From the IMG/VR virus record IMGVR_UViG_3300042566_001780, positions 129,190 to 193,189 of that record: DNA of 64,000 nt; one strand, written 5' to 3'. Shown here piece after piece: positions 3,211 through 37,154 of this stretch. The position numbers were made by a program, and so were the translations under genes. The DNA comes from a virus. The stretch's first letter is position 1. Each line of letters starts with the position of its first letter. A model generated the notes under the pieces. That model saw only the letters and a program-made list of their open reading frames with translations. It was not told the DNA's origin and ran no database searches.

Positions 3211-4107
3211 ATGAAAAAGATTTCTATTCTCGCGCTCGCAGCCGTTACTTTTGCCGCCCATGCAGCTCCTGTTGGCATTGCTTCTGGTCAACCGACTGGC
3301 ACCAATCACCCCATGGCACGAGATATTGCTGCGGTTTGTTCTACTGCAGATTCTCCCATCAACAACATTGTCAGTGATGGTTCTCTCGACAATCTGTTCA
3401 AGATCTATGGAGACAAGTCTGTGCAATATGGCATTGTTCAGGCAGATGCAATGGTCTATCAAAAGGGCCAAGACCCGAAAATGATGGAACGCATCATGAT
3501 GGTCTTTCCATTCTTTAGCACAGAAATTCATCTGGTAGCAAAAGCTGGATCGAATATCAATTCTCTTGCTGATCTTGCCGGAAAACGGGTTGTTGAAGGC
3601 CCTGAAGGTTCTGGCACATGGGTGACAGTGCAAGTCATCAAGCAGCTTACTGGTATGAAGTGGCAGGGTTTTTATGCTTCGCAGCAAGATGGCTTCAATG
3701 CAGTGGTAAATGGTCAAGCAGATGCCGAATTCATTGTGGCTGGAAAGCCAATTGTCATGCTGCAAAAGAATCAAGGATTCAAACTGGTACCATTGTCTCA
3801 TCCCAAACTTGATTCCTTTGGACTGTATACCAAGACGATGATTCCGAGTGGTACCTATGAATCATCGAAAAGCACTGTAGGCACATACAAAGTTGACAAC
3901 GTGCTTGCCACATTTGCATTCAAAAACCAGTACCAAAAAGAAATTGGTACTCTGGTGACATGTATTTCTCGCAACATCGAAAAGCTGCAGACCGGTGCAT
4001 CCTTCCACCCAAAGTGGAAGGATGTCGATCCTAAGGATATTAACCGTATTCAATGGCCAGCGCATCCTGCTGCAAAAGCTGCGATTGAGCGTGAAATCAA
4101 GCGGTGA
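3211..4107 (+). CDS. periplasmic substrate-binding protein, TAXI-TRAP / phosphonate-binding (PhnD-like) fold, with signal peptide
   Basis: Signal peptide MKKISILALAAVTFAAHA; GSGTW motif and overall SBP pattern. Confidence 0.55.
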   Translation: MKKISILALAAVTFAAHAAPVGIASGQPTGTNHPMARDIAAVCSTADSPINNIVSDGSLDNLFKIYGDKSVQYGIVQADAMVYQKGQDPKMMERIMMVFPFFSTEIHLVAKAGSNINSLADLAGKRVVEGPEGSGTWVTVQVIKQLTGMKWQGFYASQQDGFNAVVNGQADAEFIVAGKPIVMLQKNQGFKLVPLSHPKLDSFGLYTKTMIPSGTYESSKSTVGTYKVDNVLATFAFKNQYQKEIGTLVTCISRNIEKLQTGASFHPKWKDVDPKDINRIQWPAHPAAKAAIEREIKR

Positions 4108-4890: not shown

Positions 4891-6015
4891 ATGGCAAATG
4901 AAAAAGTCAAAAAAGTCAGTGTTGTTATTGGCCGCTTTTCTCCATTCCACAATGGACACAAGTACATTCTGGAAACTGTTGCCAAGCAATCTCATAAAGT
5001 CATTGTTCTGATTGGGTCTTCTTTCCAATCGCGTTCATTGAAAAACCCGTTCACTTTTGCTGAACGTCAATCTGTTATCGAAGCTTGGGCCAAAGATAAC
5101 GAGATTGAAAACACCTACATTTATCCGATTCGCGACTATCCCTACAATGATGCGCAATGGATCAAATCTATCCAAGAAGCAGTGTCTTATGCTACGTTGC
5201 TCGACAATCGCCCTCTCGAAATCCATTTGACTGGGTGCGATAAAGATTCCTCTACTTGGTATCTCCATGCTTTCCCACAGTGGAAGACTCATTTCCTGTC
5301 GGAATACACTGGCCAGGATTTGAAGACTAACGCTACACTGGTTCGAGAAATTCTTTTTTCTGGCGATCCAATGTCTCATATTGCGCCTATGGTGCCAACT
5401 CAAACTCTTGACTTTATTTCCAAGTTCAAACGAACTGCTGAATTTGAAAATCTGAAGCAGGAATATGAAATCAACCGCAAATATAAGGCGGCGTGGTCGG
5501 TAGCTCCTTATGCTCCGACCTTTAACACTGCTGATGCAGTAGTGATTCAATCTGGGCATGTTCTTGTCGTAGAGCGTGGAGCAATGCCGGGTAAAGGTCT
5601 TTGGGCATTTCCTGGTGGATTCATAAATCAAAATGAGCGTATTCAGGATGCTGCAATTCGCGAGTTGATTGAAGAAACTGGTATTTGCTTGGCTGAAGGA
5701 AAAAGGAAGCATGAACTAACGAAAAACATCCTTCAAGGCTCAATCCGAGCAAAAGAGATTTTTGATCATCCTACTCGATCTGAACGTGGCCGCACGATTA
5801 CTGTGGCATATTTGTTCAGGCTCGACGATACAAAGCCGCTTCCTCAAGTATCTGGTCAATACATTCCAGAATATGAAAGTCGTGGCCAACAGATTGTAGA
5901 AACTGCCAATGCATTTTGGCTGCCTATCAATGATGCTCTGCAACAAACTGAAAAATGGTTTGAAGATCACTGGAGTATTTTGGCATGGGCCACTGCAATT
6001 AAAGATTCTCGTTAA
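4891..6015 (+). CDS. natV: bifunctional NMN adenylyltransferase / Nudix ADP-ribose pyrophosphatase (NadM/NatV-like)
   Basis: N-terminal GRFSPFHNGH (H/TxGH nucleotidyltransferase motif); C-terminal Nudix box GGFINQNERIQDAAIRELIEETGI. Confidence 0.8.
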   Translation: MANEKVKKVSVVIGRFSPFHNGHKYILETVAKQSHKVIVLIGSSFQSRSLKNPFTFAERQSVIEAWAKDNEIENTYIYPIRDYPYNDAQWIKSIQEAVSYATLLDNRPLEIHLTGCDKDSSTWYLHAFPQWKTHFLSEYTGQDLKTNATLVREILFSGDPMSHIAPMVPTQTLDFISKFKRTAEFENLKQEYEINRKYKAAWSVAPYAPTFNTADAVVIQSGHVLVVERGAMPGKGLWAFPGGFINQNERIQDAAIRELIEETGICLAEGKRKHELTKNILQGSIRAKEIFDHPTRSERGRTITVAYLFRLDDTKPLPQVSGQYIPEYESRGQQIVETANAFWLPINDALQQTEKWFEDHWSILAWATAIKDSR

Positions 6016-6058
6016 CCAGTTTTTGTGTTAGAATTCAATTTTCTTTAAGGAGTTTATC

Positions 6059-6736
6059 ATGAGTATGAATATGAATTTCCCTGGTGCATCCAAGTTCATG
6101 GATCGCATGTTCCGTAAAGCTGACAACGTTGTATGGGATCTAACAAATGGATCCATCGGCGTCGTAACGTCTGAAGGCATTGCCACCCTTGAAGGTGAAG
6201 GCGATGATGCTCGCATCAACATTAACATGTTTGATGATTTTGGCATGGCACTTCCCGCCTTTGCCCAAAGCACCCCGAAAGATGGTGTGAAAGTCGGTGA
6301 CATTATCTATCGTGGTTCCAGCAACAACATTGCTTGGGTCATCTCCAAGAACGAAGACAAGGGCACCTTCAAGCTGATGAAGCCCAATGGCGAAACTACC
6401 TCTTGGAATCCTCCCAAGGTCTCCATGCTTGGTTTTGAAAGTGGCGTGATGGTTCTTCGTTCGCTGGTTAGCATGTTGCCCAATGGTGATAAAGGCGTCA
6501 ATCAAATGCAAACTATGCTGATGCCGATGATGCTGATGGGCGGTCTTGAAGGCGAAGGTCTTGAGAAGATGATGCCGTTCCTTCTGATGAGCCAAATGAA
6601 TGGTGGTGGCGATTCTTCTGCTATGGGCGGTATGATGCAGGCCATGATGATGGCTCAAATGTTTAAGGGTGACGGAAAGCCTTCGCTGCCCAGCTTTGGT
6701 GGAAAGAAAAACAATGGCCCTTTCTCGGGGAGCTAA
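6059..6736 (+). CDS. hypothetical protein with Met/Gly-rich low-complexity C-terminus
   Basis: MLMPMMLMGG...MGGMMQAMMMAQMF tract. Confidence 0.5.
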   Translation: MSMNMNFPGASKFMDRMFRKADNVVWDLTNGSIGVVTSEGIATLEGEGDDARININMFDDFGMALPAFAQSTPKDGVKVGDIIYRGSSNNIAWVISKNEDKGTFKLMKPNGETTSWNPPKVSMLGFESGVMVLRSLVSMLPNGDKGVNQMQTMLMPMMLMGGLEGEGLEKMMPFLLMSQMNGGGDSSAMGGMMQAMMMAQMFKGDGKPSLPSFGGKKNNGPFSGS

Positions 6737-6828
6737 CTAGCAAAGAAGAGGTTGAGCGACTGTACTATGAAAATGCTCAACCTCTTCCCGAAAAGCTAGT
6801 TAGCAGCAATTTTGCTACGATTGTTGGG

Positions 6829-7170
6829 ATGAGACATTATGATGATGCTTTCACTAGAATCATTGAAATGTCAAAGCTGCCAAAAGAACGGCAACGGTTT
6901 TTCTTAGTAAGGGAACCCACTAATCCTTTTGACAAAAACGCAATTATGTTGCATGATGGAGTCAGAAAACTAGGTCATGTTTCTGCAGTTGAAGCCGTAA
7001 GGGTTAACAAAATTATTCAGAAATTGGTGGCGGATACAAACAATGAGCAAGTTCTCATTGCTACTATCAAGCCGAAGACTGAAGAGTTTAGATGGGTTAG
7101 TTCGTTTTCAGTTGAAATCATCGGGCATGTTTATGAACGATATGCTCGCAAATTTGGTCAAATTTTTTAA
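6829..7170 (+). CDS. HIRAN-domain protein
   Basis: FLVREPTNPFDKNAIMLHDG...KLGHV matches the HIRAN signature (REPxNPxDxNAI). Confidence 0.55.
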   Translation: MRHYDDAFTRIIEMSKLPKERQRFFLVREPTNPFDKNAIMLHDGVRKLGHVSAVEAVRVNKIIQKLVADTNNEQVLIATIKPKTEEFRWVSSFSVEIIGHVYERYARKFGQIF

Positions 7171-7821
7171 TCACTGTACAGGTTGATATGAATATCCATT
7201 AAGACCTTCTTTACATTGTTTACTAATTTTCCTTCTTGGTTCTCCAGTAACTCGTTCAGCCTCTCTTGCAGATCCAAATTTTCCATTAGGAGTTATATAC
7301 CAACCCTTAAAAGCATGATGCATGTGACCACGCTGATTTAAACTAATTTGCAATGCCGTTTCGGGCTTATGTTTTTTACCATAAAATGGATTTTTTTCAC
7401 CAGTGATAGCTAAGGCTATTTTGTCTTTTGATTGTTGTTTATGTTTTTTACCAAGCATAGTACCCGGTTTTCCAAAAGCTGGATTTTTGAATCCACTATT
7501 ATCAACTGGGTATAATCCATCATTATTATGCTTATTAAGAAAGCGAGGATTATCTCTAGCATTTATTCGTTGTAAAAAACGCGTTTCAAACTGTTTTGCT
7601 TTTTCTACGCTATTGAAAACTTTTCTTATTTCAAAAATAGCATTGACGTCTTGCTTCAATAAGCGTTGAACTGTTTTTGAGCTTGAAAAATATGTATTTC
7701 CTAGATCTTTAGGCTTGCAACCTTTAGCATACTTTACACCATAGTAAATTTGGTTAAACATTGGAAACCGTATCACATATGTAAAGGGCGTTCTATCGCC
7801 AGCAGTATGTTGATAATTCAT
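7171..7821 (-). CDS. GIY-YIG homing endonuclease with NUMOD3 repeats
   Basis: FTYVIRF...NQIYYGV (GIY..YIG spacing ~10); NPAFGKPGT..GKKHKQQSKDKI and NPFYGKKHKPET NUMOD3-like. Confidence 0.65.
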   Translation of the reverse strand: MNYQHTAGDRTPFTYVIRFPMFNQIYYGVKYAKGCKPKDLGNTYFSSSKTVQRLLKQDVNAIFEIRKVFNSVEKAKQFETRFLQRINARDNPRFLNKHNNDGLYPVDNSGFKNPAFGKPGTMLGKKHKQQSKDKIALAITGEKNPFYGKKHKPETALQISLNQRGHMHHAFKGWYITPNGKFGSAREAERVTGEPRRKISKQCKEGLNGYSYQPVQ

Positions 7822-7869
7822 AATCGCAGTTATTCATTTTCGTGCTTTATTTAATGTTAAGGAGATTTT

Positions 7870-8769
7870 ATGGGACAAGGTCGCTGGACATCTGATAGTT
7901 TTACAACTTACGCATCCACCACCAATTATCGTGCAATGAGCCGTGATGCTGTTTTCAGCAAATCTGTTCAGGCTGAACTGAAGACTGAATCTATCAAGGT
8001 TCGTGAATCTCGTGACTCTGCTGATAGCCCCAATTCGACTCCAATTATCCTCGGTCTGGATGTGACAGGCTCGATGGGTGAATATGCTGAGCGCATTGCC
8101 AAGGATGAACTGCCGAAGCTGATGAATGCAATTTTGGAACAGTCTCCTGTTGCTGATCCGCATCTGATGTTTATGGCTATTGACGATGTGCATGCATACA
8201 GTCAAGTGCCGCTGCAGGTGTCTCAATTTGAAGCCGACATTCGAATTCTGGAACAGCTTCGCAAGATTGTTCTGGTTGGCGGTGGCGGTGGCAACAAGTC
8301 TGAGTCTTACGACTTGGCATGGTACTGTGCTGGTATGAAGACTTCGATCGACTCTTTCGAGAAGCGTGGTGAAAAAGGTTTCTTGTTTACCTTTGGTGAT
8401 GAAGAAGCCCCTTACGAAACTTTGTCGATCAACGAGCAGACTCAAGTGTTTGGCGCTGGACAATATATTCCTATGCAGCCTCGAGAAATCCTGGATGCTG
8501 CAAAAAAGATGTATAATGTCTTTCACATCGTTATTGAACAAGGAAGTTATGCTCGAAGCCGATTCGATTCGGTGAAGAAAACATGGACTGATTTGCTTGG
8601 TAATAATGTTCTGTTCCTGAAAGATTTTCGAAATCTGTCGGAACTGGTAACAAGTACTATTCGAATTGCAAAAGGCGAAGACATGAGTCAAGTCATTCAC
8701 AATTCGTCTATTCCTCAAGAATTGAAGTACGCTTACCAAAATGCGTACGCATCGATGGAAACTGCGTGA
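7870..8769 (+). CDS. von Willebrand factor A (vWA)-like domain protein
   Basis: LGLDVTGSMG (MIDAS-like DxTxS), LVGGGGG, FLFTFGDEEAP beta-strand pattern. Confidence 0.5.
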   Translation: MGQGRWTSDSFTTYASTTNYRAMSRDAVFSKSVQAELKTESIKVRESRDSADSPNSTPIILGLDVTGSMGEYAERIAKDELPKLMNAILEQSPVADPHLMFMAIDDVHAYSQVPLQVSQFEADIRILEQLRKIVLVGGGGGNKSESYDLAWYCAGMKTSIDSFEKRGEKGFLFTFGDEEAPYETLSINEQTQVFGAGQYIPMQPREILDAAKKMYNVFHIVIEQGSYARSRFDSVKKTWTDLLGNNVLFLKDFRNLSELVTSTIRIAKGEDMSQVIHNSSIPQELKYAYQNAYASMETA

Positions 8770-8770
8770 A

Positions 8771-10066
8771 ATGAACCACATAGTTGTTGGCTCTGGCTAC
8801 GGTGATGAAGGCAAAGGATTGATGACCGATTATTTGGTCCGTCAATCCAATGCTAAAAACGTCGTTCGGTTTAATGGTGGTGCTCAAGCGGGCCATACTG
8901 TCCAAACTGATCATCGCCGTTATGTATTTGGACACTTGTCTGCAGGTACGTTTGCCGGAGCCAACACTATTCTGACTCGAGATTTCCTAATCAATCCTCG
9001 TGCATTGGTCAAGGAAATCCAGGATATGGAGGGCATTGGCCCCTCTTGTTATCCTGAAATCAAAGCGCATCGTAGTTGCCGAGTTACAACCATTTTCGAT
9101 ATTGCTATCAATGCAGTGTTGGAAATTTCTCGTGGATCTAGTGCTCACGGCTCTTGCGGGATGGGTATCAATGAGACTGTAGTTCGAAATGATAACCCGC
9201 TGCTTTTTGGAACTCGTTTGTATGATGTCAAGCAAATGAGTGTCAAACAACTTGCAGAAAAACTGAAAACCATTCATGATAAATGGGTACCAATTCGCCT
9301 GAAAGAGCATGGCATTACGATTGGTTCACTCGAGAGCATGAATGACAATTTTGCAAATATTCTTTGCAAAGAAATCAACTACATCCAAGAAGCACGGTTG
9401 ATGCTTGATGCATTGTCTGAAATTTCATATGATGATCAATCTGCGCTGATCGGTAATACGGTTTTTGAGGGTGCTCAGGGTCTTGGGCTTGACGAAGAAT
9501 TTGGACATTTTCCACATGTGACCCGGTCAAAAACTGGATCTGTGTGGGCATTCGATTATTTGGATGATTATTTCTTTGGTCAATATGTAGGCAGCTTGGT
9601 TTACGGACGATCTGGCACGTATTGGCTTGAAAATGTAGAAGTAGTATATGTCACCAGGGCGTATGCTACTCGTCACGGTAATGGACCGCTGTCTGAAGCT
9701 GGTGGAAATATTGGTGATGGGTCAAATGTTTATGATTTGACTAACAAACCAAATCCATTTCAAGGATCACTTCGATTTGCTCCATTGAATTTGCAATTAC
9801 TTCGAGATAACATTCAAAAAGATATTGCTCGAACTGATAGAAGTTTGCGGAAAAATGGAAACGCTCCACAACACACATACCAGAAAGTGATTGCACTCAC
9901 CTGTATGGATCAACTTGGCAATTATGTCAATGTGATTGATGTTAACGGTGTTATTCGCCCAGTCCTCTCGTCTGATCTTCCACAAATGATTGAGGAACAG
10001 GTTGGACTTAGAGTAAAATACATTAGTCATGGGCCAAAAGCCTCTGACATCAAAAAAGTTTTCTAA
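8771..10066 (+). CDS. adenylosuccinate synthetase (PurA)-family enzyme (PurA-like or PurZ-like)
   Basis: GSGYGDEGKG P-loop, RFNGGAQAGHTV, FEGAQGLGLD, all collinear with PurA motifs GDEGKGK / GGHNAGHT / FEGAQGTLLD; start moved to ATG 8771 after upstream stop. Confidence 0.75.
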   Translation: MNHIVVGSGYGDEGKGLMTDYLVRQSNAKNVVRFNGGAQAGHTVQTDHRRYVFGHLSAGTFAGANTILTRDFLINPRALVKEIQDMEGIGPSCYPEIKAHRSCRVTTIFDIAINAVLEISRGSSAHGSCGMGINETVVRNDNPLLFGTRLYDVKQMSVKQLAEKLKTIHDKWVPIRLKEHGITIGSLESMNDNFANILCKEINYIQEARLMLDALSEISYDDQSALIGNTVFEGAQGLGLDEEFGHFPHVTRSKTGSVWAFDYLDDYFFGQYVGSLVYGRSGTYWLENVEVVYVTRAYATRHGNGPLSEAGGNIGDGSNVYDLTNKPNPFQGSLRFAPLNLQLLRDNIQKDIARTDRSLRKNGNAPQHTYQKVIALTCMDQLGNYVNVIDVNGVIRPVLSSDLPQMIEEQVGLRVKYISHGPKASDIKKVF

Positions 10067-10156
10067 CAGGCTTAGGGACTCTTGCCTTTTCAAAAAGAGT
10101 CTCACCCGCAAAGATCGATAGACGATCTCTTGCAATCATGATCAAGGAGCTTAATC

Positions 10157-11548
10157 ATGGAACAACTTAGCTACAACCCTATCCTCGACGTCGATTCGTA
10201 CAAAGCTGCACACCAGTTTTCGTACCCAAAGAACGTCACCGGCATGTTCTCTTATATTGAGGCACGCACCAAGAATGATGTGATGATTCCGTTTGGACTG
10301 TCGATGTTCTTGCAAAAGTACATGTCAATCCAAATAACGAAGGCTTATATCGATGAAGCTGAAGAATTCTTCAAGCTGCACGGTGAACCATTTTCTCGTG
10401 AACCCTGGGAGCACATTGTCAACGAATATGACGGCTTTATGCCTCTCACTATTCGTGCAGTACCTGAAGGAACTCCGGTGAAAAGCTCTAATGCAATTGT
10501 CACTGTTCAATGTGATGATCCTGCAGTGCACTGGCTGTCTTCTTACGTCGAAACCAAAATCCAACGCGCAATTTGGTATCCTACTACGATTGCTTCAATG
10601 GACTATGCAATCAAGCGGGTCTTTAAGGAATTCTATGAAGCTACTGGGGCAGATATGAATTTGCTCCCGTTTGCCCTCCATGATTTTGGTGCGCGTGGTG
10701 TCGCAAGCTACGAGCAATCTGAAATTGGCGGTGCAGCACACATGGTCAACTTCATGGGTTCTGACACCGTGGCAGGTATTCGTGCTGCAAACTTCTATTA
10801 CAGTGAGCAAATGGCCGGGTTTTCTGTGCCGGCTACTGAGCACAGTGTGGAATGCTCGTTTGGTGAAGAAAATGAAATCGGTTATCTGGAACACGTCATT
10901 GACAATCTGGCCAAGCCTGGTGGTATTGTGTCTATTGTGATTGACGGCTATGATGTTTATCGTGCTGCGCAAACTCTTTGCACTACGCTGAAAGACAAGA
11001 TCATTGCAAGCGGCGTCAAGGTCGTATTCCGCCCTGATAGTGGGGATATGCAAGTGGTGGTGCCTCGTATCCTTGAATTGCAGGCCGCTACTTTTGGTTA
11101 TGAAGTCAATGAAAAAGGCTTCAAGAAGATTAAATACGTTGGCATTATCCAAGGTGATGGCGTTGATCACTTGTCCATTCGTTCGCTGCTTGGCAAAATG
11201 AAGGTGATGGGTTTCTCTGCTGATAACGTGGTTTTTGGATCTGGTGGTGCACTGCTCCAAAAGGTCAATCGAGACGTTTTCAAATTCGCCCAAAAAGCTT
11301 CTGCTGTTCGGATTGATGGGAAGTGGGTCGGTATCAGTAAAAATCCAATCACCGATCCCGGAAAGCGAAGCAAGGAAGGCGTTTTGACTCTTGTTAAGAG
11401 TCGACTGACTGGTGAATACTCTACGGCTCGAATTGATGATAAGCGTCTTGATTCTGAGTTTGAAGACCAAATGGAACTTGTCTACTACAATGGCAAGATC
11501 ATGAATTCTCCAACTTTGTCTGAAATTCGAGAACGCTGCAAGCTGTAA
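10157..11548 (+). CDS. nadV: nicotinamide phosphoribosyltransferase (NAMPT/NadV)
   Basis: N-terminal NPILDVDSYKAAHQ signature, 463 aa, RBS aaggagc. Confidence 0.85.
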   Translation: MEQLSYNPILDVDSYKAAHQFSYPKNVTGMFSYIEARTKNDVMIPFGLSMFLQKYMSIQITKAYIDEAEEFFKLHGEPFSREPWEHIVNEYDGFMPLTIRAVPEGTPVKSSNAIVTVQCDDPAVHWLSSYVETKIQRAIWYPTTIASMDYAIKRVFKEFYEATGADMNLLPFALHDFGARGVASYEQSEIGGAAHMVNFMGSDTVAGIRAANFYYSEQMAGFSVPATEHSVECSFGEENEIGYLEHVIDNLAKPGGIVSIVIDGYDVYRAAQTLCTTLKDKIIASGVKVVFRPDSGDMQVVVPRILELQAATFGYEVNEKGFKKIKYVGIIQGDGVDHLSIRSLLGKMKVMGFSADNVVFGSGGALLQKVNRDVFKFAQKASAVRIDGKWVGISKNPITDPGKRSKEGVLTLVKSRLTGEYSTARIDDKRLDSEFEDQMELVYYNGKIMNSPTLSEIRERCKL

Positions 11549-11552
11549 ACGT

Positions 11553-11580
11553 ATGGGGACCTAAAAGGTCCCCATAATAG
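11553..11580 (+). terminator. hairpin atggggacc/ggtccccat after nadV
   Basis: 9-bp stem, weak T tract. Confidence 0.4.
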
Positions 11581-11624
11581 TTTCTAATGCCTGCAAAATT
11601 TGAACACCTCTGGGATGTCCCGAA

Positions 11625-12236
11625 ATGACCGAAATTAACTTAGATAACTCCCCACTGCAATTCATTGTTACTACTTTAGACGAAGAAGATCGACCCAAAA
11701 TTGAATCTCATTTACTACGTCTTTCTAAAGAAGATCGCTATTTGCGATTTTTTGCTGCACTTGGTGATTCCCAAATCAAACACTACGCTTCAACTATTGA
11801 CCTGAAAAAGGGGAAGGCTTTCGGCATCATTACCCTGCCAGATCGCAAGCTGGTTGCATTAGCTCATGTATCTGAGATTGAAAAATCTGATCATAGAGTC
11901 ATTGCAGAAATGGGCGTCTCAGTTGATGCCGATGTTCGAGTTCAAGGCCTTGGAAAAAGACTGATGGATCGCACGGTGACTTACTGCCAAACCCATGGAA
12001 TCAACACACTGTTTATGTCATGCTTGCGCGAGAACAAAGTCATGCAAAAGCTGGCAAAAGATTTTGATTTGCGGATTGTGCTTGACGCTGGAGAGGCCAT
12101 GGCAGAACTTGATTTGGATCCACTGGACAAAATGAAAGCCATGCCGAAAGAAATGCTATACCAGCAAATTTCTTTGTTTGACAAAGCATTCAAGCACAAC
12201 AAAATGTTGATCGATGCCGTTTTTAGTGTACAATAA
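11625..12236 (+). CDS. GNAT-family N-acetyltransferase
   Basis: RVQGLGKRLM motif A (Q/RxxGxG/A). Confidence 0.55.
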   Translation: MTEINLDNSPLQFIVTTLDEEDRPKIESHLLRLSKEDRYLRFFAALGDSQIKHYASTIDLKKGKAFGIITLPDRKLVALAHVSEIEKSDHRVIAEMGVSVDADVRVQGLGKRLMDRTVTYCQTHGINTLFMSCLRENKVMQKLAKDFDLRIVLDAGEAMAELDLDPLDKMKAMPKEMLYQQISLFDKAFKHNKMLIDAVFSVQ

Positions 12237-12268
12237 CATTAACAAAACAAATTTTTGAAAGTCCCCAA

Positions 12269-12709
12269 ATGTTCAAATCTGCTATCTTGGCTTCTGCAAT
12301 TCTTGCACTTTCTGCAAGTAGCATGGCTTCCAGCGACTCTGGAGATTGGGAACTCTTGGCAAAAGGCACAGATCGCACTTACACCGTTTTGACTGAAAGC
12401 ATTCAAATTGACATCACTAACCAAAGTGCTCAATTTGCAATGAAGGTTGAATATACACCGCCGGTCAAGTTGAGTAAGAAGCCAGGTGATGTACTTGTTA
12501 CCTCTGTTGAGACTACATTGGTGTTGTGTGATGCTGATAAAGTCATTTCAATGACTCGACTGGGCATGAATCAGAAGGGTGAATACGTGGTTGATGATAA
12601 TTATGCCATGGTTTATTCCAAGACGAAAGCGCCAAACATGGTCATTACACACATTTACAATTTTGCATGTGAAAAAGTTTCGAAGCATGTGAAAAAGAAG
12701 ACGATTTAG
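12269..12709 (+). CDS. secreted hypothetical protein (signal peptide)
   Basis: MFKSAILASAILALSASSMA signal. Confidence 0.5.
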   Translation: MFKSAILASAILALSASSMASSDSGDWELLAKGTDRTYTVLTESIQIDITNQSAQFAMKVEYTPPVKLSKKPGDVLVTSVETTLVLCDADKVISMTRLGMNQKGEYVVDDNYAMVYSKTKAPNMVITHIYNFACEKVSKHVKKKTI

Positions 12710-12726
12710 TGATAGAATTCATTTAA

Positions 12727-12803
12727 CGCCACTTAGCTCAGTTGGTCAGAGCAAGAGCTTCTAACACTCCAGGTCGCGGGTTCGAGCCCCGCAGTGGCGA
12801 CCA
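12727..12803 (+). tRNA. solitary tRNA-like gene, anticodon loop reads uuCUAac (possible CUA amber-suppressor) with weak anticodon stem; encoded CCA
   Basis: 7-bp acceptor cgccact/agtggcg, D arm gctc-agttggtca-gagc, T arm gcggg-ttcgagc-cccgc, CCA end; anticodon stem agagc/actcc has only 3 pairs. Confidence 0.55.
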
Positions 12804-12833
12804 GTTTTTCTCCTCGTTTAAGGATTTTTAAAA

Positions 12834-14828
12834 ATGTCTGATTTCAAGTTTTTTGCTACCAAAGTTTTTGACAAGTTTACTGAAATGTCGAAGGGTGAAC
12901 TGTTCACCGTCGATATTGATGGTGACAACCTGTACGCCCATTACATCAGCTCTTTCCCTGATGGCACTAATCCGATCTTCAAGACTCGGACAGAGCATGA
13001 GTGCTCTACCTGCAAGAACTTCATTCGCAATCTGGGTCTTGTTGTTTCCATCTCTGGTGGCAAACTGGATTCTGTTTGGAATGTGAAGGGTCTGCAAAGT
13101 CCCTACAAAGAAGTGGCTGCTGCACTTCATCAATATGTGGTGGTGAATAATGTCAAGACCATCTTCCGCTCTACAGAACGTTCGTATGGTGTTGCCGAAT
13201 CCAAGCAATTGATTGACAACAACATTCATCGTTGGAATCACCTACACGGTGTTGTGGCTGCAAAGCATTATGCCAAAGCAAATGCTGCAACTCAAATTGG
13301 CGAGTTCAATGCCCATATTCAGGTATTTTCTCGTGGGCTGGAAGAATTTACGAAAGACTCGATTGATTCTGTTCTGGATCTGATTGCCAGCAAGTCCATT
13401 TATCGCGGTGAAGAGCATAAGCCGGCTGTCGATGCGTTCAAGAAGCTGTTTGATGCTTATCACAAGCTGAAGACTGCCAAAGAGAAGAACATTTTCGTCA
13501 TGGAAAATGCAAATACCTTTGGTGCTCGTATTCGTAACACTGTGATTGGCACCCTGATTCAAGATCTGTCGGCTGGTGAAGACTTGGAAAAGGCAGTTCG
13601 CTCGTTTGAAACGAAGGTTTCACCTACCAACTACAAGCGCACTACGGCTCTCATTACACCCCGAATGATTCAAGATGCAATGAAGACTATCGGTGAACTT
13701 GGTCTTGAGTCTGCGCTGGAACGTCGTCTGGCAAACATCTCGGATGTTAGTGTCAATAACGTTCTGTGGGTGGATAATGCTGTCAAGCCCATGATGAAGG
13801 GCGGTATTGAAGGCTTGTTGATGGAGGCAACTTCGAGCAAGGATGCTGCTATTAGCTTCAAGAATCCGGTCAATATCGGGATTGAAGAGTTTATGGCTGA
13901 TATTCTGCCAAGCGCTTCTGAAATCAACATGTGCGTGAAGAATGAGCATCTGGCAAATTTTGCTACGCTCACTGCTCCTGTTCATGCTGATTCTGAAAAA
14001 CTGTTTAAGTGGAACAATGCGTTTGGTTGGTCGTATGATGGCAACATCACTGATACCATTCGTGAACGAGTGAAGGCTGCTGGTGGTAACGTTGATGCTA
14101 AGCTTCGATTTAGCCTGTCGTGGTTCAACTACGATGATCTGGACATCTATGTGACTGAACCTAACGGTCGAGAAATTTATTTCTGCAACAAGGATGGAAA
14201 ACTTGATGTTGACATGAATGCTGGTGGTGGTCGCAGCCGTACCCCGGTTGAGAACGTCAGTTTCAAGAATCCTCAAGATGGAGTTTACGTTGTCAAGGTG
14301 AATCAGTATTCTCGTCGTGAAACTACAAATGTTGGTTTTGTGATTGAAGCAGCCTCGGGTTCTGGTACTAATCAGTACTCGTACAATAAGGCAGTTTCTG
14401 GCAAAATTAATGTTGGTAGCTTTACCGTGAAGAACGGTGTCATTGTTGATGTCAAGATGGGTGCTGGAATTTCTGGTACTGGAATCTCCGAAACTAAATG
14501 GGGTGTCAAGACTGAGAGCCCGGTGAAAGTGAAGACTGTTATGTTTAGCCCCAACTATTGGGATGACAATAAGGTCGGTAACAAGCATTGGTTCTTTATC
14601 TTGGAAGGTTGCAAAACTGACCAAGCAGCCCGAGGGATTTATAATGAATTCCTTGACGCGCGACTTGAAAAGCACCGCAAAGTGTTTGAAGTCCTGGGTG
14701 ACAAGACAAAGTGTCCAGCTATTGATGATCAATTGAGTGGTTTGGGTTTCTCTTCTACTCGAAAAGATCAAGTTTTGGTTAGTGTGAAACTCGGTAAATC
14801 GACAAAAGTGTTTAATATCAATTTTTAA
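12834..14828 (+). CDS. large hypothetical protein (664 aa) with C-terminal beta-sandwich region resembling the DUF2135/YfaP-type domain
   Basis: C-terminal LDIYVTEPNGREIYFCNKDG...PVENVSF...GVYVVKVNQYSRRE pattern (from memory of the family logo; weak). Confidence 0.55.
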   Translation: MSDFKFFATKVFDKFTEMSKGELFTVDIDGDNLYAHYISSFPDGTNPIFKTRTEHECSTCKNFIRNLGLVVSISGGKLDSVWNVKGLQSPYKEVAAALHQYVVVNNVKTIFRSTERSYGVAESKQLIDNNIHRWNHLHGVVAAKHYAKANAATQIGEFNAHIQVFSRGLEEFTKDSIDSVLDLIASKSIYRGEEHKPAVDAFKKLFDAYHKLKTAKEKNIFVMENANTFGARIRNTVIGTLIQDLSAGEDLEKAVRSFETKVSPTNYKRTTALITPRMIQDAMKTIGELGLESALERRLANISDVSVNNVLWVDNAVKPMMKGGIEGLLMEATSSKDAAISFKNPVNIGIEEFMADILPSASEINMCVKNEHLANFATLTAPVHADSEKLFKWNNAFGWSYDGNITDTIRERVKAAGGNVDAKLRFSLSWFNYDDLDIYVTEPNGREIYFCNKDGKLDVDMNAGGGRSRTPVENVSFKNPQDGVYVVKVNQYSRRETTNVGFVIEAASGSGTNQYSYNKAVSGKINVGSFTVKNGVIVDVKMGAGISGTGISETKWGVKTESPVKVKTVMFSPNYWDDNKVGNKHWFFILEGCKTDQAARGIYNEFLDARLEKHRKVFEVLGDKTKCPAIDDQLSGLGFSSTRKDQVLVSVKLGKSTKVFNINF

Positions 14829-14835: not shown

Positions 14836-15258
14836 ATGAAAATGACTGCAAATATCTTTATGCAAGCTTCCCGCATGAAACTGCGTTTCCCCTCTAACAA
14901 GGGTGATCTAACTGTGGAACAACTGTGGGATCTTCCGCTGTCTTCCAAGACGGCTTTTGATCTGGATACCATTGCCCGTGCAGTGTATACTCAGATGAAT
15001 GCTGTGTCGGAACCGAGTTTTGTGGCAGTTCGTTCCAATCCCGTCAAGGAAAAGCTGGAATTGTCTCTGGAAATCGTGAAGCACATCATCTCGGTGAAGA
15101 TGGCTGAAAATGAAGTGGCCGCAAAGCGTGCCGCAGCTCGAGTGGAACGTGATCGACTGATGTCTATCCTGGCAGATAAGCAGGATGCAGAAACCCGATC
15201 GCTGTCTGTGGATGAAATCCGCAAGCGCCTCGCGGATCTGGATGCAGAAACTGCTTAA
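14836..15258 (+). CDS. hypothetical protein (140 aa)
   Basis: ORF with aaggtga RBS. Confidence 0.5.
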   Translation: MKMTANIFMQASRMKLRFPSNKGDLTVEQLWDLPLSSKTAFDLDTIARAVYTQMNAVSEPSFVAVRSNPVKEKLELSLEIVKHIISVKMAENEVAAKRAAARVERDRLMSILADKQDAETRSLSVDEIRKRLADLDAETA

Positions 15259-18903: not shown

Positions 18904-21900
18904 ATGCCAACATTAGTAAGTTCTGGTGACATCACTATTAGCGATGTCAATGATGGTCTTAATGCAAGACTATCTAATGAGTCACACGTTATTCCAACAG
19001 ATGCAGATGGGTTAAATGGAGATTTCTCTGGTTGCTCTACTACTATATCTGTGTTTGTTGGTCCCATAGATGATTCTGCAAACTGGACTATTACAGCTTT
19101 GGCATCTCCAGGTTTAACTGGTACATTAGCTGGCAGGACGTATACGGTAACTGCATTGAGCGGAGATATTGGGTATGTTGATCTAACTGCTTCTAAAACT
19201 GGTTTCCCATCTATTACGTCTAGATTTTCTGTTTCTAAAGCAGTTGCTGGCACCAATGGTCAAGATGCATCTCAAATTGCTGTAGTTGCAACCCAATGGG
19301 ATTATCGTGACGATGATGCAGCTTGGGGCATCAGAATTAACGGTACACTGCAAACAGGCGCTGCACGTGGTCATAAACTTGTAGTATTGAACCCAGCTAC
19401 TAATACAGTATCGATAAATCAAAACTACGATACTTATGGATCTGTATCTAATACAGATAGTTTGGCTGCTGCAATTTCTGCGGTTGCGGACGGACTAGTG
19501 GTCATTCTTACCACATATGATGCTACTCAATGTAATCAAAATTTGAGAAATGCTTTAAGATTATGCGGAAGTGAATCAACTGAAACCTGGGCAACACAAC
19601 GTAAATCTCACGCTTTCATTGGCCAAAAAGGTCTTCCTATTGGTGCTGCATATGAAAAGACTGGATTTGGCACCACCTCTGCTGGTACTTCAAGAGTAGC
19701 TGCATATTTTACCACTAGTGGCGTTGTGCGAAATGGATCTACTGCATTTAATGCAGTTTCAGCAATTCTTTCTAATGAAGCACATGTGTTTACTGCATCA
19801 ACTGCCGGTGTGGTTGCTTCATATGTTGGATCTGGCACTGAGCTACGGGTGTATGATGGTACTGTTTTATTGACATATGATGGTTCTGGTACTTTACCAG
19901 GTACTTGGAAGTTTACAAATGTTGCTTCAAACATCACAATTGGGGCGATATCTGATAGCGGCGCATTTGCCACTATTGGCGATCATTCAGGTGTTGCTGA
20001 TGGTGTTGACACATCTAGCATTACATACACTATTACTGGTAAATCGTTAATTAATTCCGATTTCACTTTAGTGAAGGTACAGACCTTTAGTAAAGCTAAA
20101 CGTGGAATAGAAGGCGATAATGCTATATCCGTAACGCTATCAAATGAAACTCACGTTTTTCCAGCTACTTACACAAATATAGTTTCTAATTATAGGAATT
20201 CTGGAACTGAAATCCAAGTTCTTGAAGGAGCAACTGAATTAGCATATGATGCGGCCGGGTTAACTCCCGGCACATGGAAAGTTGATACCTCATCAAGTAA
20301 CATAGTTGCCGGTCCTGTCAAAAAATTTATTTTGGGAGATGATTGGGTTTTTAATGATGGGATGGGCAGCAGTGGATGGGGGGTTAATACTGCAGTAACT
20401 TGTATTATTTGGGCAAATAATCAATTTATTGCTGGTGGCACAAATGGAAAAATTGCTACTAGTTCTGATGGAATTACCTGGTCGGTAAATGAAAATTTAT
20501 CAAAAACTGGGTGGGGAGATAGCGTAATTTTAGACATAATTTGGACTGGTGTTCAGTATGTTTTAGTAGGAGCCAATGCTACCTATTCTTCAGATCTTAG
20601 TATTTGGTATGCAAATGGATCAATAAATTCTACAGCTGTGGCTACTAGTTCTGATGGAATTAATTGGGAATATCAACCCGACTTAAATCTAAAAACAAAT
20701 AATGGCGCATTATGCATAGCTTGGAATGGATCAAAATATGTTGCTGGTGGTCAAGCTGGGTTAATAGCAACCAGTTTAGATGCTAAAACCTGGGAAATTA
20801 GCACAAATTTGTCGTCTACTGCGTGGGGCACAAATGTATCTGGTGATTCAGTTGATGTTCTTGATATAAATTGGAATGGATCGCAATTTTTAGCTGTAGG
20901 GGTTTTGGGGCGTGTGGCCACCAGTCCTGACGGTGTAACTTGGACATATCAGGCTGGGTTAACTAGTACAGCATGGGGGACCAGTTTAACTGGCGCGGTT
21001 AGATCAATTAATTGGAATGGGTCCCAGTATGTTATTGTTGGGCAAGGCGGGAGAGTGGCTACAAGTCCTAATGGTATCACGTGGACATATCAAAGTGGAT
21101 TAGCAAGTACTGCTTGGGGTGCAGGAGCAATATATTCTATAAATTGGAATGGATCTCAATATATTGTAGTTGGCGCATCTGGCAAAGTAGCTACAAGCCC
21201 AGATGGAATAACTTGGACATATCAGAGCGGGATAACGAGTGTATGGGGGTCGAGTTATGATGCCTTTACTGTTATTTGGAATGGATCCAAATATGTCGTT
21301 GGTGGCGTTAGTGGATCAGTGGCAACGAGCGCCGATGGTATTACTTGGGCAAATCAGGGTGGGCTAGCTGGAACTGATAAGTGGTTAGATTCACCAGTTA
21401 ATTCAGGAACATTATTATCTAGATATGCTATTATTGGTGGTGACGGAGCTAAATTAGCAGTTAGATTTAATGATGAATGGGAATTTCAAGATGCTTTTGC
21501 CATTAAATCTGCTATCGATCTAACAGTTTTAGATTTTAATGGTTCGCAATATATTGTTGGCGGGACAAATGCAACGCTAGCTATAAGCAGTGATGGAATA
21601 TATTGGACATACCAAGATGGACTGGCTAATGCGAGCTGGGGGACCAGTGCTACTTACGATATAAATTGGAATGGATTTCAATACATGGCTGTCGGAGCTG
21701 GAGGCCGAGTAGCAACAAGTCCAGATGGTATTACCTGGACATATCAAAGCAGTCTAGCTAGTACAACTTGGGCGACAGCTACGGCTTATTCGATTAGTTG
21801 GAATGGATCTCAATATGTTATAGTTGGTACTTTAGGCAGGGTCGCTACAAGTCCAGATGGCATAACTTGGACTTATCAGGGCGGCTTGGCTAGTACAACT

Positions 21901-24900
21901 TGGAGCACTGCTACGGCCCGCTGTATTGTTTGGAACGGGTCACAATATCTCGTTGTAGGACAATCTGGACGAGTAGCTACAAGCCCAGATGGCATAACTT
22001 GGACTTATCAGGGTGGACTTAGAGCTACTTCGTGGGGAACATTAGATACGGTGTTTGATGTCCATTGGAATGGATCACAGTATTTGGTTGTTGGAGATTC
22101 AGGTAAAGTTGCAACTAGTCCAGATGGAATAACTTGGACAAATCAAACAGGCTTATCGAGTACTACTTGGGGGACGGTCAATGAAATATATTCAATTGGT
22201 TGGGATGGATCTCAATATGTAGTTTGCGGCATGGATGGTGATATAGCTACTAGCTTTGATGGTATAACATGGAAATACCAAGCGGGGCTTTGGAATACAC
22301 CATGGGGAGCATTAGATTATGCTAATAGCATTATTTGGGATGGAACACAATTCTTAGTTGTCGGGGATAATAGAAAATTAGCTACCAGCGTAGATGGAGT
22401 AAACTGGAAATTTAAACCTAATTTATCTGGATGGAAAAATTCTGGGAATGTAAACCATCTTGCAAATATAGATAATACTGTTTATGCTCTTGGATCTGCT
22501 GGGAATATTGCATGTTCAAATAATCTTATAGATTGGACATTTTTAGCCCCGGTTGGTGCTGTTGACATAGGGGCCGTTTCGCTTACTGGTATTGCAAAAT
22601 CTGCAAATGACACATTATGTGCAATTGGGTCAAATAATCTAGTTATGGTGGGCAATGAGAATCAAAACTTATCATTACGCCTCGGTTATGCATCAATAAA
22701 CACACGCTTTTTTGCTAATACCGCAAATAAAATAAATTGGAATGGTACACAATACCTTGCTGTTGGTAATGATGCAAGCATAGCAACTAGCGTAGATGGC
22801 GTAACGTGGGTTAATCAAGTTGGCTTAATAAGCGCTGACTGGGGAATAAGTAATATAAATGATGTCCATTGGAATGGATCACAATATGTCGTTGTTGGCA
22901 ATTCTGGCAAAGTAGCTACGAGTCCAGATGGAATAACTTGGACAAATCAAACAGGCCTATCGAGTACTGCTTGGGGGATAGATGATATTTTTGCAGTGGC
23001 GTGGAATGGATCGCAATACATAGTTGGTAGCAATTATGGTGGTATTGCAACTAGCCCAGATGGAATAACTTGGACATATAGAAGTGGATTAGCAAGCACA
23101 ACGTGGGGAGCGGCTGCTGTGCGTGCAATTAACTGGAATGGATCGCAATATCTAGTGGCTGGTGCTTCTGGCAAAGTAGCTACAAGTCCAGATGGTATTA
23201 CATGGGCATATCAGGGGGGTTTAACCAGCACTACATGGGGGACAACTACGGCATATTTTGTTAACTGGAATGGATCACAGTATCTTATAGGCGGCGCAGC
23301 TGGGCGAATAGCAACTAGCCCAGATGGAATAACTTGGACATATAGAAGTGGATTAGCAAGCACAACGTGGGGGTCAGCATCGACAGCTATTGTTTATTCT
23401 ATTAATTGGAATGGATCGCAATATCTAGTGGCTGGTGGATCAGGTAAAGTTGCAACTAGCCCAGATGGAATAACTTGGACATATCAGAGCGGGTTGACTA
23501 GCACTGCGTGGAGTTCTAGCGCTGTTTTTTCAATTAGCTGGAATGGATCGCAATATCTAGTTGTTGGGGAATTGGGTAAAGTTGCAAGTAGCACAACTGG
23601 AGTATCTTGGGTGTATGGCCGCAGATTAACAAGTACTACATGGGGCGGGAGTGATATAAACGATATAGTTTGGAATGGATCTCAATATCTAGTTATTGGT
23701 GATTCAGGTAAAGTTGCAACTAGCACAACTGGAGTATCTTGGTCTTATCAACCATTATTGCAAGATACTTTATGGAGATCTACAAATATTAACGCAATTA
23801 ACTGGAATGGATCTCAATATCTTATATGCGGCGAGGGCGGTGCTATAGCAACCAGCCCAAATGGGGTAACTTGGACATATCAAAGTGGATTGACGAGCAC
23901 TGCATGGGGGACAACTGCCGTTTATGCAATTAACTGGAATGGATCGCAATATCTCATAGCTGGTGGATCAGGTAAAGTTGCAACTAGTCCAGATGGAATA
24001 ACTTGGACAAATCAAACAGGCCTATCGAGTACTGCTTGGGGGACAAATACTATATATTCTATTAGTTGGGGTGGATCTCAATATGTTATTGCTGGGAATT
24101 CTGGCGCTATAGCAACCAGCCCAAATGGGGTAACTTGGACATATCAAGGTGGTTTAGCCAGTACTGCTTGGGCGACTAGTGCAGTACGCAGCATTGTTTG
24201 GAATGGATCGCAATATCTAGTGGCTGGTGCTTCTGGCAAAGTAGCAACAAGCCCAAATGGAGTAACTTGGACATATCAAGGTGGTTTAGCCAGTACTGCT
24301 TGGGGTGCCGAAATAGTTTATTCAATAAGCTGGAATGGTTCACGTTATATAGTAGCAGGTGGTGATATTGGATCTACTGGTAAAGTAGCCACAAGTTCAA
24401 ATGGCGTAACATGGACATTTGCAGATATAAATAATGATTCTTCGTCTACGCCCATTTTAACAAAAAGTTATTACGATGGAACACGATTCATATTATGCAG
24501 CTCAGGCCAATTGTGGTTTAGCACGGTCGGGGATATTAGCTTTTTATATCCTACTTGGACTATTACCCAAGCATTGCCAGCCGGATCTGAATGGAATACA
24601 AATACCTATGCTTCATCAATAGCATGGGGCAATAATGTTTTTTGTGTTGTTGGCGAATACGGAAGAGTGGCTACGAGTGTTGATGGTAATATTTGGATAC
24701 ACCAGGAATTGCTTAATTCAATTGGCGGATGGAACTATTCAAACATTAATCAAGTAATTTTTGCAAATGGAGTATTTTGCATTATTGGGGATTATGGCAA
24801 TACAGCCATAAGCGCTGATGGCATCACCTGGCAAGTTAGCAATTCATTAGTTAGTACTGATTGGGGTAGAAATCCTATAACATCAATAGTTTGGGCTAAT

Positions 24901-35855: not shown

Positions 35856-35940
35856 CCATCAGATGCCAAACTGGTTATGGCACTCGACTTTTAATCGAGC
35901 GCGTTACGCTTTGTGGGTTCGAGTCCCACCTGATGGACCA
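35856..35940 (+). tRNA. tRNA-Lys(UUU)-like, 85 nt with long (13-nt) variable arm; encoded CCA
   Basis: Acceptor ccatcag/ctgatgg, D gcca/tggc, anticodon stem ctcga/tcgag loop cuUUUaa, extra arm gcg-tta-cgc, T gtggg-ttcgagt-cccac. Confidence 0.6.
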
Positions 35941-35948
35941 AAGTTTTT

Positions 35949-36024
35949 GCCTGTTTAGCTCAGTTGAGAGAGCAAAATGTTGATAACGTTTAGGTCGCTG
36001 GTTTGAGTCCAGCAACAGGCACCA
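35949..36024 (+). tRNA. tRNA-Ile(GAU)
   Basis: Acceptor gcctgtt/aacaggc, anticodon loop ttGATaa, T gctgg-tttgagt-ccagc, CCA. Confidence 0.8.
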
Positions 36025-36030
36025 AAAAAT

Positions 36031-36115
36031 GTCGCGTGTTGGCTGCTGGTAACGGCCCTCACCCTTTCAAGGTGACGTCTTTATGACTGCGGTTCGATTC
36101 CGCCACGCGACGCCA
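36031..36115 (+). tRNA. tRNA-Glu(UUC)-like, 85 nt with long variable arm; encoded CCA
   Basis: Acceptor gtcgcgt/acgcgac, anticodon stem tcacc/ggtga loop cuUUCaa, extra arm gtc-tttat-gac, T loop ttcgatt. Confidence 0.55.
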
Positions 36116-36121
36116 AGTTAT

Positions 36122-36193
36122 TGGGGGATTGTCATCTGGTGATGACATTGCGCTTTGACCGCAAGAAGGTGGGTTCGATCCCCACTCCCCTTG
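36122..36193 (+). tRNA. tRNA-Gln(UUG), no encoded CCA, U1-U72 mismatch
   Basis: D gtca/tgac, anticodon stem ttgcg/cgcaa loop cuUUGac, T gtggg-ttcgatc-cccac. Confidence 0.6.
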
Positions 36194-36203
36194 CACTTGA
36201 CAT

Positions 36204-36910: not shown

Positions 36911-36935
36911 TTTGTTCATGTTTAGTGTTATTTGC

Positions 36936-37008: not shown

Positions 37009-37021
37009 CAAATAGCATTAT

Positions 37022-37099: not shown

Positions 37100-37154
37100 A
37101 TAATTATAACTTCGATCATCAAAATTTGGTGATGATGGAGATTTTAAAAACAAT

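Follow-up and report, generated by a model that had tools for sequence, protein, structure and literature searches.

A phage PurA-like enzyme paired with a vWA gene belongs to a clade apart from PurA and PurZ

Introduction

Phage genes of the PurA family are usually read against two described enzymes. One is PurA itself, the adenylosuccinate synthetase (AdSS; EC 6.3.4.4; E. coli structures PDB 1CG3 and 1ADE), and the other is PurZ/PurZ0, the N6-succino-2-amino-2'-deoxyadenylate synthase of phages with 2-aminoadenine (Z) genomes (PDB 6FM1, 7ODX and 7VF6). According to a 2026 survey, the position of PurA Asp13 is Ser in 100% of 147 phage PurZ/PurZ0 and Asp in 99% of the PurA group, and most of 481 phage PurA homologues fell outside the PurA and PurZ groups, a result that was given without comment (PMC12884076). 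An adenylosuccinate synthetase may also be included in PUA-domain defense operons, in a different context (bioRxiv 10.64898/2026.01.15.699771). Phage PurA homologues are now routinely read, or automatically annotated, as PurZ, and hence as markers of 2-aminoadenine genomes. Here we analyze a PurA-like gene at positions 8771–10066 (+ strand) of a 64,000-nucleotide stretch of viral DNA (the window; positions 129,190 to 193,189 of IMG/VR record IMGVR_UViG_3300042566_001780). Databases label this gene 'PurA-like adenylosuccinate synthetase' or, wrongly, '2-aminooxy adenylosuccinate synthetase'.

Our results indicate that the gene belongs to a large clade of this family that is neither PurA nor PurZ/PurZ0. 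The coupling of this clade to an upstream gene for a vWA-domain protein is a strict gene pairing, which went unnoticed in a preliminary description of the window. In the searchable literature, including a survey of viral NAD+-ADPr (PMC9503650) and the Kongming paper (bioRxiv 10.1101/2024.12.20.629578), we found no description of the vWA/PurA-like cassette.

Results

The PurA-like gene and its fold

The gene lies in an open reading frame (ORF) that spans 8741–10066 (+), in which the preliminary description placed the start at the ATG at 8771, giving a protein of 431 aa. We consider this start correct, since homologues start at the same MNH/MNY residues and an upstream TGA (8767–8769) ends one base before it; the closest database homologue, which is 97% identical and likewise 431 aa long, has the same start residues. 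The Pfam family PF00709 is matched with 134 bits (E 6e-39), above the threshold of 27 bits and over profile positions 1–273 of 416 only. An AlphaFold model made with 62 homologues in the alignment has a pLDDT of 91.9 and shows the long-form architecture with a helical subdomain, and Foldseek matches it to solved AdSS with E values of 1e-24 to 1e-19 and TM scores of 0.67–0.70 (E 2.6e-24 for the E. coli enzyme).

The preliminary description had assigned the ORF to the PurA family and had quoted the motifs GDEGKGL, GGAQAGHT, SCGMGINE and FEGAQG, all of which are found in the protein. Because the ORF, its start, the motifs, the Pfam match, the modeled fold and the NatV and NadV neighbors described below were confirmed, the observation on this gene is real. 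The signatures of the clade, HGS[CV]GxGI.E, TRHGxG, TNxxNx[FWY]QG..R and T[CH]xDQ, appear in the window protein as HGSCGMGINE, TRHGNG, TNKPNPFQGSLR and TCMDQ. The window protein and its 97%-identical relative also carry an insertion of about 20 residues, DYFFGQYVGSLVYGRSGTYWLEN, at about 262–285, which other clade members do not have and which is modeled poorly, with pLDDT below 50 at residues 275–280.

Separation from canonical PurA

Judged by model scores, alignment and phylogeny, the protein is not a canonical PurA. The NCBIfam equivalog models for PurA give 120.8 bits (NF002223; cutoff 402) and 103.5 bits (TIGR00184; cutoff 395.55), and identity to the PurA proteins of E. coli, Listeria and Enterococcus is 23–26%. 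Alignment of the family to E. coli PurA by hhalign, with a probability of 99.8%, covers PurA residues 1–293 and ends before the aspartate loop and the guanine-binding elements. In a neighbor-joining tree of 37 sequences (three PurZ, two PurZ0, three canonical PurA with none from archaea, and 29 clade members; capped distances), the vWA-linked clade was recovered in 200/200 bootstraps, PurZ together with PurZ0 in 200/200, and PurA in 185/200. Of a library of 1.84 billion representatives, the clade accounts for 1892 clusters, formed at 50% identity and matched at E ≤ 1e-30.

To compare active sites, the ligand contacts of H. pylori AdSS (PMC11571797, Table 3) were carried over by a constant offset to E. 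coli numbering and from there to an alignment of 159 clade members, the scope of the counts that follow. The phosphotransfer set is 100% conserved: D12, K15, H42 and Q236 correspond to E. coli D13, K16, H41 and Q224. This invariance suggests that a machinery for the activation of a 6-oxopurine, driven by a nucleoside triphosphate (NTP), is under strong selection. Among the IMP ligands Asn38, Thr129, Thr239, Arg143', Val273 and Arg303, only the equivalent of Thr239 is kept (the 5'-phosphate ligand T251, in 158/159), and probably also that of Arg143, the arginine donated by the partner subunit in PurA, whose likely counterpart is R139. At the remaining positions, N38 is replaced by Gln in 157/159, T129 is Cys in 142, Val in 14 and Thr in 3, and V273 is His in 159/159. 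At R303, which in PurA contacts both the ribose 2'-OH and the anion in the aspartate site, no member has Arg; the residues found there are Ser, Thr, Ala, Lys and Val. In the aspartate site, the position of R131 is always hydrophobic (L/V/M/I/C) and that of T301 is Gln in 158/159. The RRRR loop has one Arg left, R335, near R305/R306, and the gap placement allows it to be matched with either; it is invariant or near-invariant, and H302 and N325 are invariant. According to this alignment, the site that receives aspartate and the ribose 2'-OH has been remodeled, with H302, N325 and Q331 as its new invariant residues. The preliminary description was right that conserved positions deviate from PurA. 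C129 was considered as a catalytic cysteine and rejected, because the position is Val or Thr in 17/159 members.

Equivalences in the C-terminal third rest on MAFFT and motif anchoring, with ambiguous gap placement. D380, the MAFFT equivalent of the guanine-specifying D333 in the region beyond the hhalign alignment, is an Asp in 133 of the 159 members and is replaced by Asn in the other 26; S419 (S414) and G421 (G416), likewise placed by MAFFT where hhalign could not align, are kept in 133/159 and 138/159, respectively. Cys378, which precedes D380, is His in 35 of the 159 members. A sub-clade may use a different phosphoryl-donor nucleotide.

Separation from PurZ and the Z-base pathway

The preliminary description had also suggested that the gene, together with an HD ORF (42433–43107) and a MazG-like ORF (44415–44924), could mark a 2-aminoadenine pathway. 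On the evidence of residues, profiles and tree, the protein is not PurZ, and we reject the Z-base hypothesis. The P-loop Asp (D12) is kept in the window protein and in 159/159 clade members, whereas the PurZ references read G-S-T/E-G/A-K-G. The NCBIfam PurZ model NF038379 gives 51.9 bits against a cutoff of 300, and the clade profile reaches 31 bits on the PurZ0/PurZ structures 7VF6 and 6FM1 versus 127 bits on bacterial PurA structures. Only 110 N-terminal columns of the family could be aligned to phiVC8 PurZ by hhalign (E 2e-7), and identity to PurZ/PurZ0 is 19–21%. In the phylogeny, a check that the preliminary description had proposed, the window protein stands apart from PurZ/PurZ0, being excluded from their clade in 200/200 bootstraps. 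Furthermore, the 201 phage records with a PurZ relative, from Arthrobacter, Microbacterium, Gordonia, Acinetobacter and Vibrio podoviruses, have zero overlap with the records that carry the vWA-linked clade.

As for the presumed partners, both ORFs exist, but their matches to the two enzyme classes are weak, and both lie more than 32 kb from the PurA-like gene. The HD-like ORF has an H...HD pattern and a PHROG 'phosphohydrolase' match (E 3.6e-17), with no match in Pfam; it shows no similarity to DatZ (E 2.6 and 12 for the phiVC8 and S-2L proteins), and DatZ orthology was rejected. The MazG-like ORF matches Pfam PRA-PH (MazG-type) with 36 bits. We likewise discarded MazZ orthology for it, as a one-to-one comparison with S-2L MazZ gives E 0.012 and its best solved relative in the PDB is the dUTPase-like DR2231. 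Of the window ORFs that were scanned against Pfam or PHROGs, none was recognized as a DNA polymerase gene.

Strict pairing with a vWA gene

Directly upstream of the PurA-like gene, at 7870–8769 (+), lies a gene for a vWA-domain protein of 299 aa ('Y') with a MIDAS-like D64-x-T66-x-S68 motif. Between its stop codon (TGA, 8767–8769) and the ATG of the PurA-like gene there is a gap of 1 nt, and the same spacing is found in the relative L176. The comparison took in 80 IMG/VR loci, out of at least 534 relatives, and 80 loci of bacterial assemblies with one genome per species, out of 505 relatives; pairing was counted where the upstream sequence was at least 1.1 kb long. A same-strand upstream vWA gene is present in 76/77 viral and 73/74 genomic loci (149/151), mostly directly adjacent.

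Four phage lineages encode a vWA homologue a short way upstream of the PurA-like gene, namely Vibrio phage phiKT1024 (47% identical), Rhizobium phage RHph_TM39 (42%), mycobacteriophage Catera (gp250; 30%, E 3e-33) and three jumbo-phage contigs. In INPHARED, the PurA-like gene occurs in phages of Mycobacterium (202), Rhizobium (10) and Vibrio (6), and the vWA gene has the same distribution, with 201 in Mycobacterium and one in Mycolicibacterium, 10 in Rhizobium and 6 in Vibrio. The best 120 and 150 homologues are 376–458 aa long, and none of them is a fusion of the two proteins. The vWA protein is conserved from residue 1, in that 82 of 84 viral homologues and 67 of 75 genomic ones begin with M-G-x-x-x-[W/F]. 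Its N-terminal tail is modeled with low confidence.

A third cassette gene

The cassette has a constant order, namely protein X or a J-domain/kinase-like protein first, then the vWA protein, and the PurA-like protein as the last gene, and it is found in many large phages and, as an operon of its own, across diverse bacteria. In the window the first position is taken by X, at 6059–6736 (+), a 225-aa protein that has no match in Pfam or PHROGs; its N-terminal domain is conserved, and its C-terminal tail is rich in Met and Gly. Homologues of X occupy the same relative position in the jumbo contig L004 (68% identity), in phiKT1024 (51%) and in RHph_TM39 (40%), and copies of X are located at L002:6039–6752, L009:4741–5532 and L043:6480–7073; altogether it occurs in 25 viral loci, and a divergent form in 17 more. 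In L004, X is better conserved than the PurA-like enzyme (68% vs about 45% identity). X as a universal third component was ruled out: it is absent from mycobacteriophages, and it is found in a few phages without the PurA-like gene (Acinetobacter, Ralstonia RP13 and Roseobacter RDJL3).

The alternative third gene encodes a protein of about 340 aa in which a J domain at the N-terminus is joined to a kinase-like domain, as at L010:2595–3668 (Catera gp249), L021:5830–6864, L107:3985–5022 and more than 50 other loci. The HPD motif is invariant in the J domain, which scores 34.6 bits with Pfam DnaJ, above the threshold. The kinase-like domain of Catera gp249 matches Pkinase with 37.5 bits; in the consensus of 58 sequences the HRD and DFG aspartates are missing, and the domain is thus probably a pseudokinase. 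This form occupies 31/80 viral and 53/80 genomic loci and never occurs together with X.

Around the bacterial loci we found no conserved genes beyond the three of the cassette. The operon on the chromosome of Clostridium carboxidivorans P7 (L107 3985–8961), which consists of the J-kinase, vWA and PurA-like genes, stands amid ordinary cell genes and not in a prophage. A flavin-containing amine oxidase gene lies 82 bp 3' of this operon on the same strand, and in the jumbo contig L006 an FAD oxidoreductase is encoded about 4 kb downstream.

Two further genes lie between X and the vWA gene in the window. A small HIRAN-domain protein (6829–7170, +; Pfam HIRAN 25.8 bits) is encoded at the same place in 12 related loci. 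The GIY-YIG/NUMOD3 homing endonuclease that follows (7171–7821, −; NUMOD3 45 bits, phrog_314) is absent from that position in the close relatives L176/L177 and L003–L006; it is an insertion and no functional part of the cassette. In phiKT1024 (L002, about 5023–12896), one gene of the NADAR family and one of the TROVE (Ro60-like) type lie close to the cassette. A vWA domain is part of Ro60 itself, and Bxz1-type mycobacteriophages that bear the cassette presumably encode a Ro-like protein as well.

NAD+ salvage genes and the transcription unit

In the window the cassette is flanked by genes for NAD+ salvage, and Pfam confirms both of the genes that the preliminary description had named as neighbors. 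NatV (4891–6015, +), an NMN adenylyltransferase with a Nudix domain, matches CTP_transf_like and NUDIX, and NadV (10157–11548, +), a nicotinamide phosphoribosyltransferase directly downstream of the PurA-like gene, matches NAMPT_N and NAPRTase. The order natV, X, HIRAN, vWA, PurA-like, nadV is common to the window and related jumbo-phage contigs. A consensus scan detected no terminator-like site between 10066 and 10157, so that the PurA-like gene and nadV are probably co-transcribed. The same scan placed a terminator-like hairpin, with 6 G-C pairs in a stem of 11 bp and a T-rich tail, 3' of nadV at 11552–11576 (+); terminator-like sites in the region are no more numerous than in shuffled sequence, and this hairpin is the sole convincing one. 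In 20 of the 80 viral and 13 of the 80 genomic loci compared, a NadV or NatV homologue lies within 8 kb, which rules out NAD+ salvage as an obligatory context. The recurrence of NAD+ genes hints at a shared theme and is too rare to place the PurA-like gene in the NAD pathway.

The phage genome and other genes in the window

The window comes from a large myovirus; it encodes 12 tRNA genes and T4-type tail proteins, and its tail sheath is 51–56% identical to those of Ralstonia RsoM2USA and Xanthomonas/Stenotrophomonas XacN1-type jumbo phages. Megablast of positions 8000–12000 against INPHARED gave no match at the DNA level. A lone tRNA gene at 12727–12803 (+), 23 kb from a cluster of 11 tRNA genes at 35856–37552, has the anticodon CTA, which reads the amber codon, and is labeled 'Pyl' by ARAGORN; it may be a phage suppressor tRNA. 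It is followed by genes for a 664-aa protein of phrog_1735 (12834–14828, +; DUF8224 in the close relative L176) and a 140-aa protein of phrog_2018 (14836–15258, +), a pair that is also near the PurA-like gene in L029 and L089. Upstream of natV, two solute-binding proteins are encoded at 1435–2526 and 3211–4107 (both +; SBP_bac_3 with LysM, and NMT1_3, respectively), and the NMT1_3 gene is near ABC-transporter ATPase genes in the related jumbo contigs L005 and L006. Farther along are an ORF of 2280 aa (18904–25746, +), whose sole Pfam match is one ILEI domain near the N-terminus, and a gene for an SPFH/Band-7 family protein (31580–32464, +).

Discussion

The modeled fold, the separate clade, the conservation of the catalytic residues, the replacement of the aspartate site and the strict gene pairing together lead us to favor, with slightly better than even confidence, the view that the gene encodes a catalytically competent enzyme of the AdSS fold, from a distinct and uncharacterized clade, which acts as the cassette partner of the vWA protein and has an altered specificity. 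In the mechanism that we propose, the enzyme would bind GTP, probably as the phosphoryl donor, and would pass its gamma-phosphate on to the O6 atom of an IMP- or dIMP-type 6-oxopurine nucleotide; the phosphate would then be displaced by an amine, yielding an N6-substituted adenine nucleotide. Because the pocket seems to have been remodeled, with invariant residues specific to the family, the reaction probably differs from that of PurA in its amine donor or in the sugar/phosphate state of the nucleotide. The vWA protein would be an obligatory partner, perhaps a regulator, an adaptor or a substrate carrier, and the partnership suggested by the gene pairing might be physical or functional.

Several points weigh against this interpretation. 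Every statement on the substrates of the clade rests on alignment to PurA, and the C-terminal third, which includes the aspartate loop and the guanine elements, is too diverged for HH-level alignment. PurZ is without the canonical TTGRxRR loop and yet uses aspartate, so the lost arginines are no proof that the use of aspartate has been lost. Moreover, conserved gene order among related jumbo phages can stem from shared descent. For the vWA gene, however, the occurrence of the pairing in mycobacteriophages, in alpha- and gammaproteobacterial phages and in Clostridium chromosomes argues against mere shared descent.

It would be tempting to go further, although we regard the following as doubtful. 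The clade could be a third functional branch after PurA and PurZ, with an undescribed NTP-driven reaction in which a (deoxy)inosine-type nucleotide is coupled to an amine other than free aspartate, such as the N-terminal glycine of the vWA protein or a client protein, or in which dIMP, dITP or ITP arising from deaminase immunity is re-aminated. The three-gene cassette might then be a conflict or counter-defense system of phages and bacteria.

Among the competing explanations, the one that survives best, while still being unlikely in our judgment, is that of an ordinary auxiliary AdSS (IMP + L-Asp + GTP -> adenylosuccinate), which would raise AMP/ATP, for example for the ATP-consuming NadV and NatV, with the vWA protein as a regulator or an unrelated neighbor. 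The preliminary description had entertained a gene of this kind, and the PurA family membership and the NAD neighborhood on which it relied both stand. The equivalents of D13, K16, H41 and Q224 and the P-loop are kept, as is, in most members, the presumed guanine-specifying Asp, and bacterial PurA gives the best structural and sequence matches, but the score of 120.8 bits is far below the 402-bit equivalog cutoff and the clade stands on its own in 200/200 bootstraps. Against a plain AdSS stand also the replaced residues of the aspartate and 2'-OH sites, with R131 and R303 never Arg, T301 changed to Gln and the pocket lined by His, Asn and Gln as new invariant residues; this argument is tempered by the alignment of PurZ, whose non-canonical loop still binds aspartate and which thereby shows the Arg-rich canonical loop to be dispensable, so that a plain AdSS keeps some probability. 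A location flanked by natV and nadV, where no terminator separates the gene from nadV, would suit a supplier of ATP, whereas NadV/NatV are nearby in just 20/80 viral and 13/80 genomic loci. Finally, the coupling to a vWA gene (149/151 loci) and to a J-domain/kinase-like gene or X has no parallel in housekeeping purA.

That the gene encodes a counter-defense enzyme seems to us quite improbable. The enzyme would consume or re-aminate (deoxy)inosine nucleotides made by deaminase immunity (dITP in Kongming; ITP made from ATP by RADAR or Cad1), working beside NadV and NatV, which rebuild NAD+. In Kongming, which ties dIMP/dITP to NAD+ depletion, dITP triggers that depletion, and the phage counters described so far are dAMP-depleting only (bioRxiv 10.1101/2024.12.20.629578). 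The retained residues for 6-oxopurine chemistry are consistent with such a role, as is the loss of the ribose-2'-OH Arg (R303), which is expected for a deoxy substrate; in addition, an Arg is often gained beside the 5'-phosphate Thr (R252, in 115/159), and NAD+ salvage genes are recurrent neighbors in phages and bacterial loci. This idea is, however, purely inferential, it leaves the obligatory vWA partner and the J-domain/kinase-like gene unexplained, and the cassette is also found in bacterial chromosomes away from prophage genes, with most loci having no NAD genes nearby.

We give still less credence to a protein-directed ligase, in which the amine would be the N-terminal glycine of the vWA protein or a residue of a client protein and the product a protein–N6-adenylate adduct. 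The conservation of the vWA protein from residue 1, with its M-G-x-x-x-[W/F] start and its low-confidence tail, would fit a ligase target but may have other causes. The aspartate site has lost the arginines that bind a dicarboxylate, and the accessory genes seem suited to act on proteins (a J domain with HPD, a kinase-like domain without the HRD/DFG Asp, a Met-rich tail), yet the chemistry would be without precedent.

Least probable by far, and close to refuted, is a PurZ or PurZ0 that would mark a Z genome together with the HD-like and MazG-like genes: a PurA homologue is indeed encoded by the phage, both ORFs are within the same window, and PHROG and RefSeq call the whole phage PurA-like group '2-aminooxy adenylosuccinate synthetase', but the P-loop Asp where PurZ/PurZ0 have Ser (PMC12884076), the low PurZ-model and profile scores, the split of the clades at 200/200 bootstraps, the long form with its helical insert, the separate sets of phage records, the unrelatedness of the two ORFs to DatZ and MazZ and the lack of a polymerase among the scanned window ORFs all speak against it.

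These distinctions matter for annotation. A large share of phage PurA homologues is not readable as PurZ, including those of all Bxz1-type mycobacteriophages, Rhizobium T4-like phages, a Vibrio phage group, many jumbo phages and hundreds of bacterial loci. A simple rule that separates PurZ from non-PurZ is the P-loop residue, Ser vs Asp, together with a vWA gene upstream. If the clade has its own reaction, it would represent a new nucleotide-modifying or nucleotide-salvaging activity in phage–host biology.

Compared with known systems, the locus resembles NARP2, the NadV plus NatV pathway of KVP40-like phages, in that both enzymes are present and flank the cassette here and in related jumbo contigs. 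The definition of NARP2, however, covers no more than the two NAD enzymes, and the PurA-like/vWA pair is without them in about 75–85% of loci. TerY-P type modules reportedly combine a vWA protein with a Ser/Thr kinase, and in some cases a PP2C phosphatase, in conflict modules. As in these, a vWA gene lies beside a kinase-fold gene in a small mobile operon of bacteria and phages, but the cassette has no phosphatase, its kinase-like domain is without the HRD/DFG Asp and carries an N-terminal J domain, and its third gene has the PurA fold; no PADLOC model, TerY-P included, is matched by the PurA-like, vWA, X or J-kinase protein.

PurZ/PurZ0 and the present clade are both phage-borne offshoots of the PurA superfamily with altered substrate pockets. 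The ribose-2'-OH Arg is unconserved in both, and the guanine-site motif of PurZ0 from an Arthrobacter phage resembles the T-x-x-D-Q of the clade. The two differ in the P-loop residue and in size, as PurZ has about 340–390 aa and no helical insert, whereas the window protein has 431 aa. They also differ in their partners, as PurZ is linked to DatZ/MazZ/DpoZ or DutZ/DmtZ (PMC12884076), none of which is seen in the window. With PurA, the clade has in common the fold, the long form with its helical subdomain, the P-loop GDEGKG, the catalytic residues Asp, Lys and His, the FEGAQG Gln and the Thr239 equivalent; an Asp that presumably corresponds to the guanine-specifying one, as placed by MAFFT, is present in most members. 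Unlike PurA, to which identity is 23–26%, it has a C-terminal third that is unalignable at the profile level, the changes N38 to Gln, T129 to Cys/Val, R131 to a hydrophobic residue and V273 to His, and a rebuilt T300/T301/R303 loop, and it forms a separate clade that is paired with a vWA gene.

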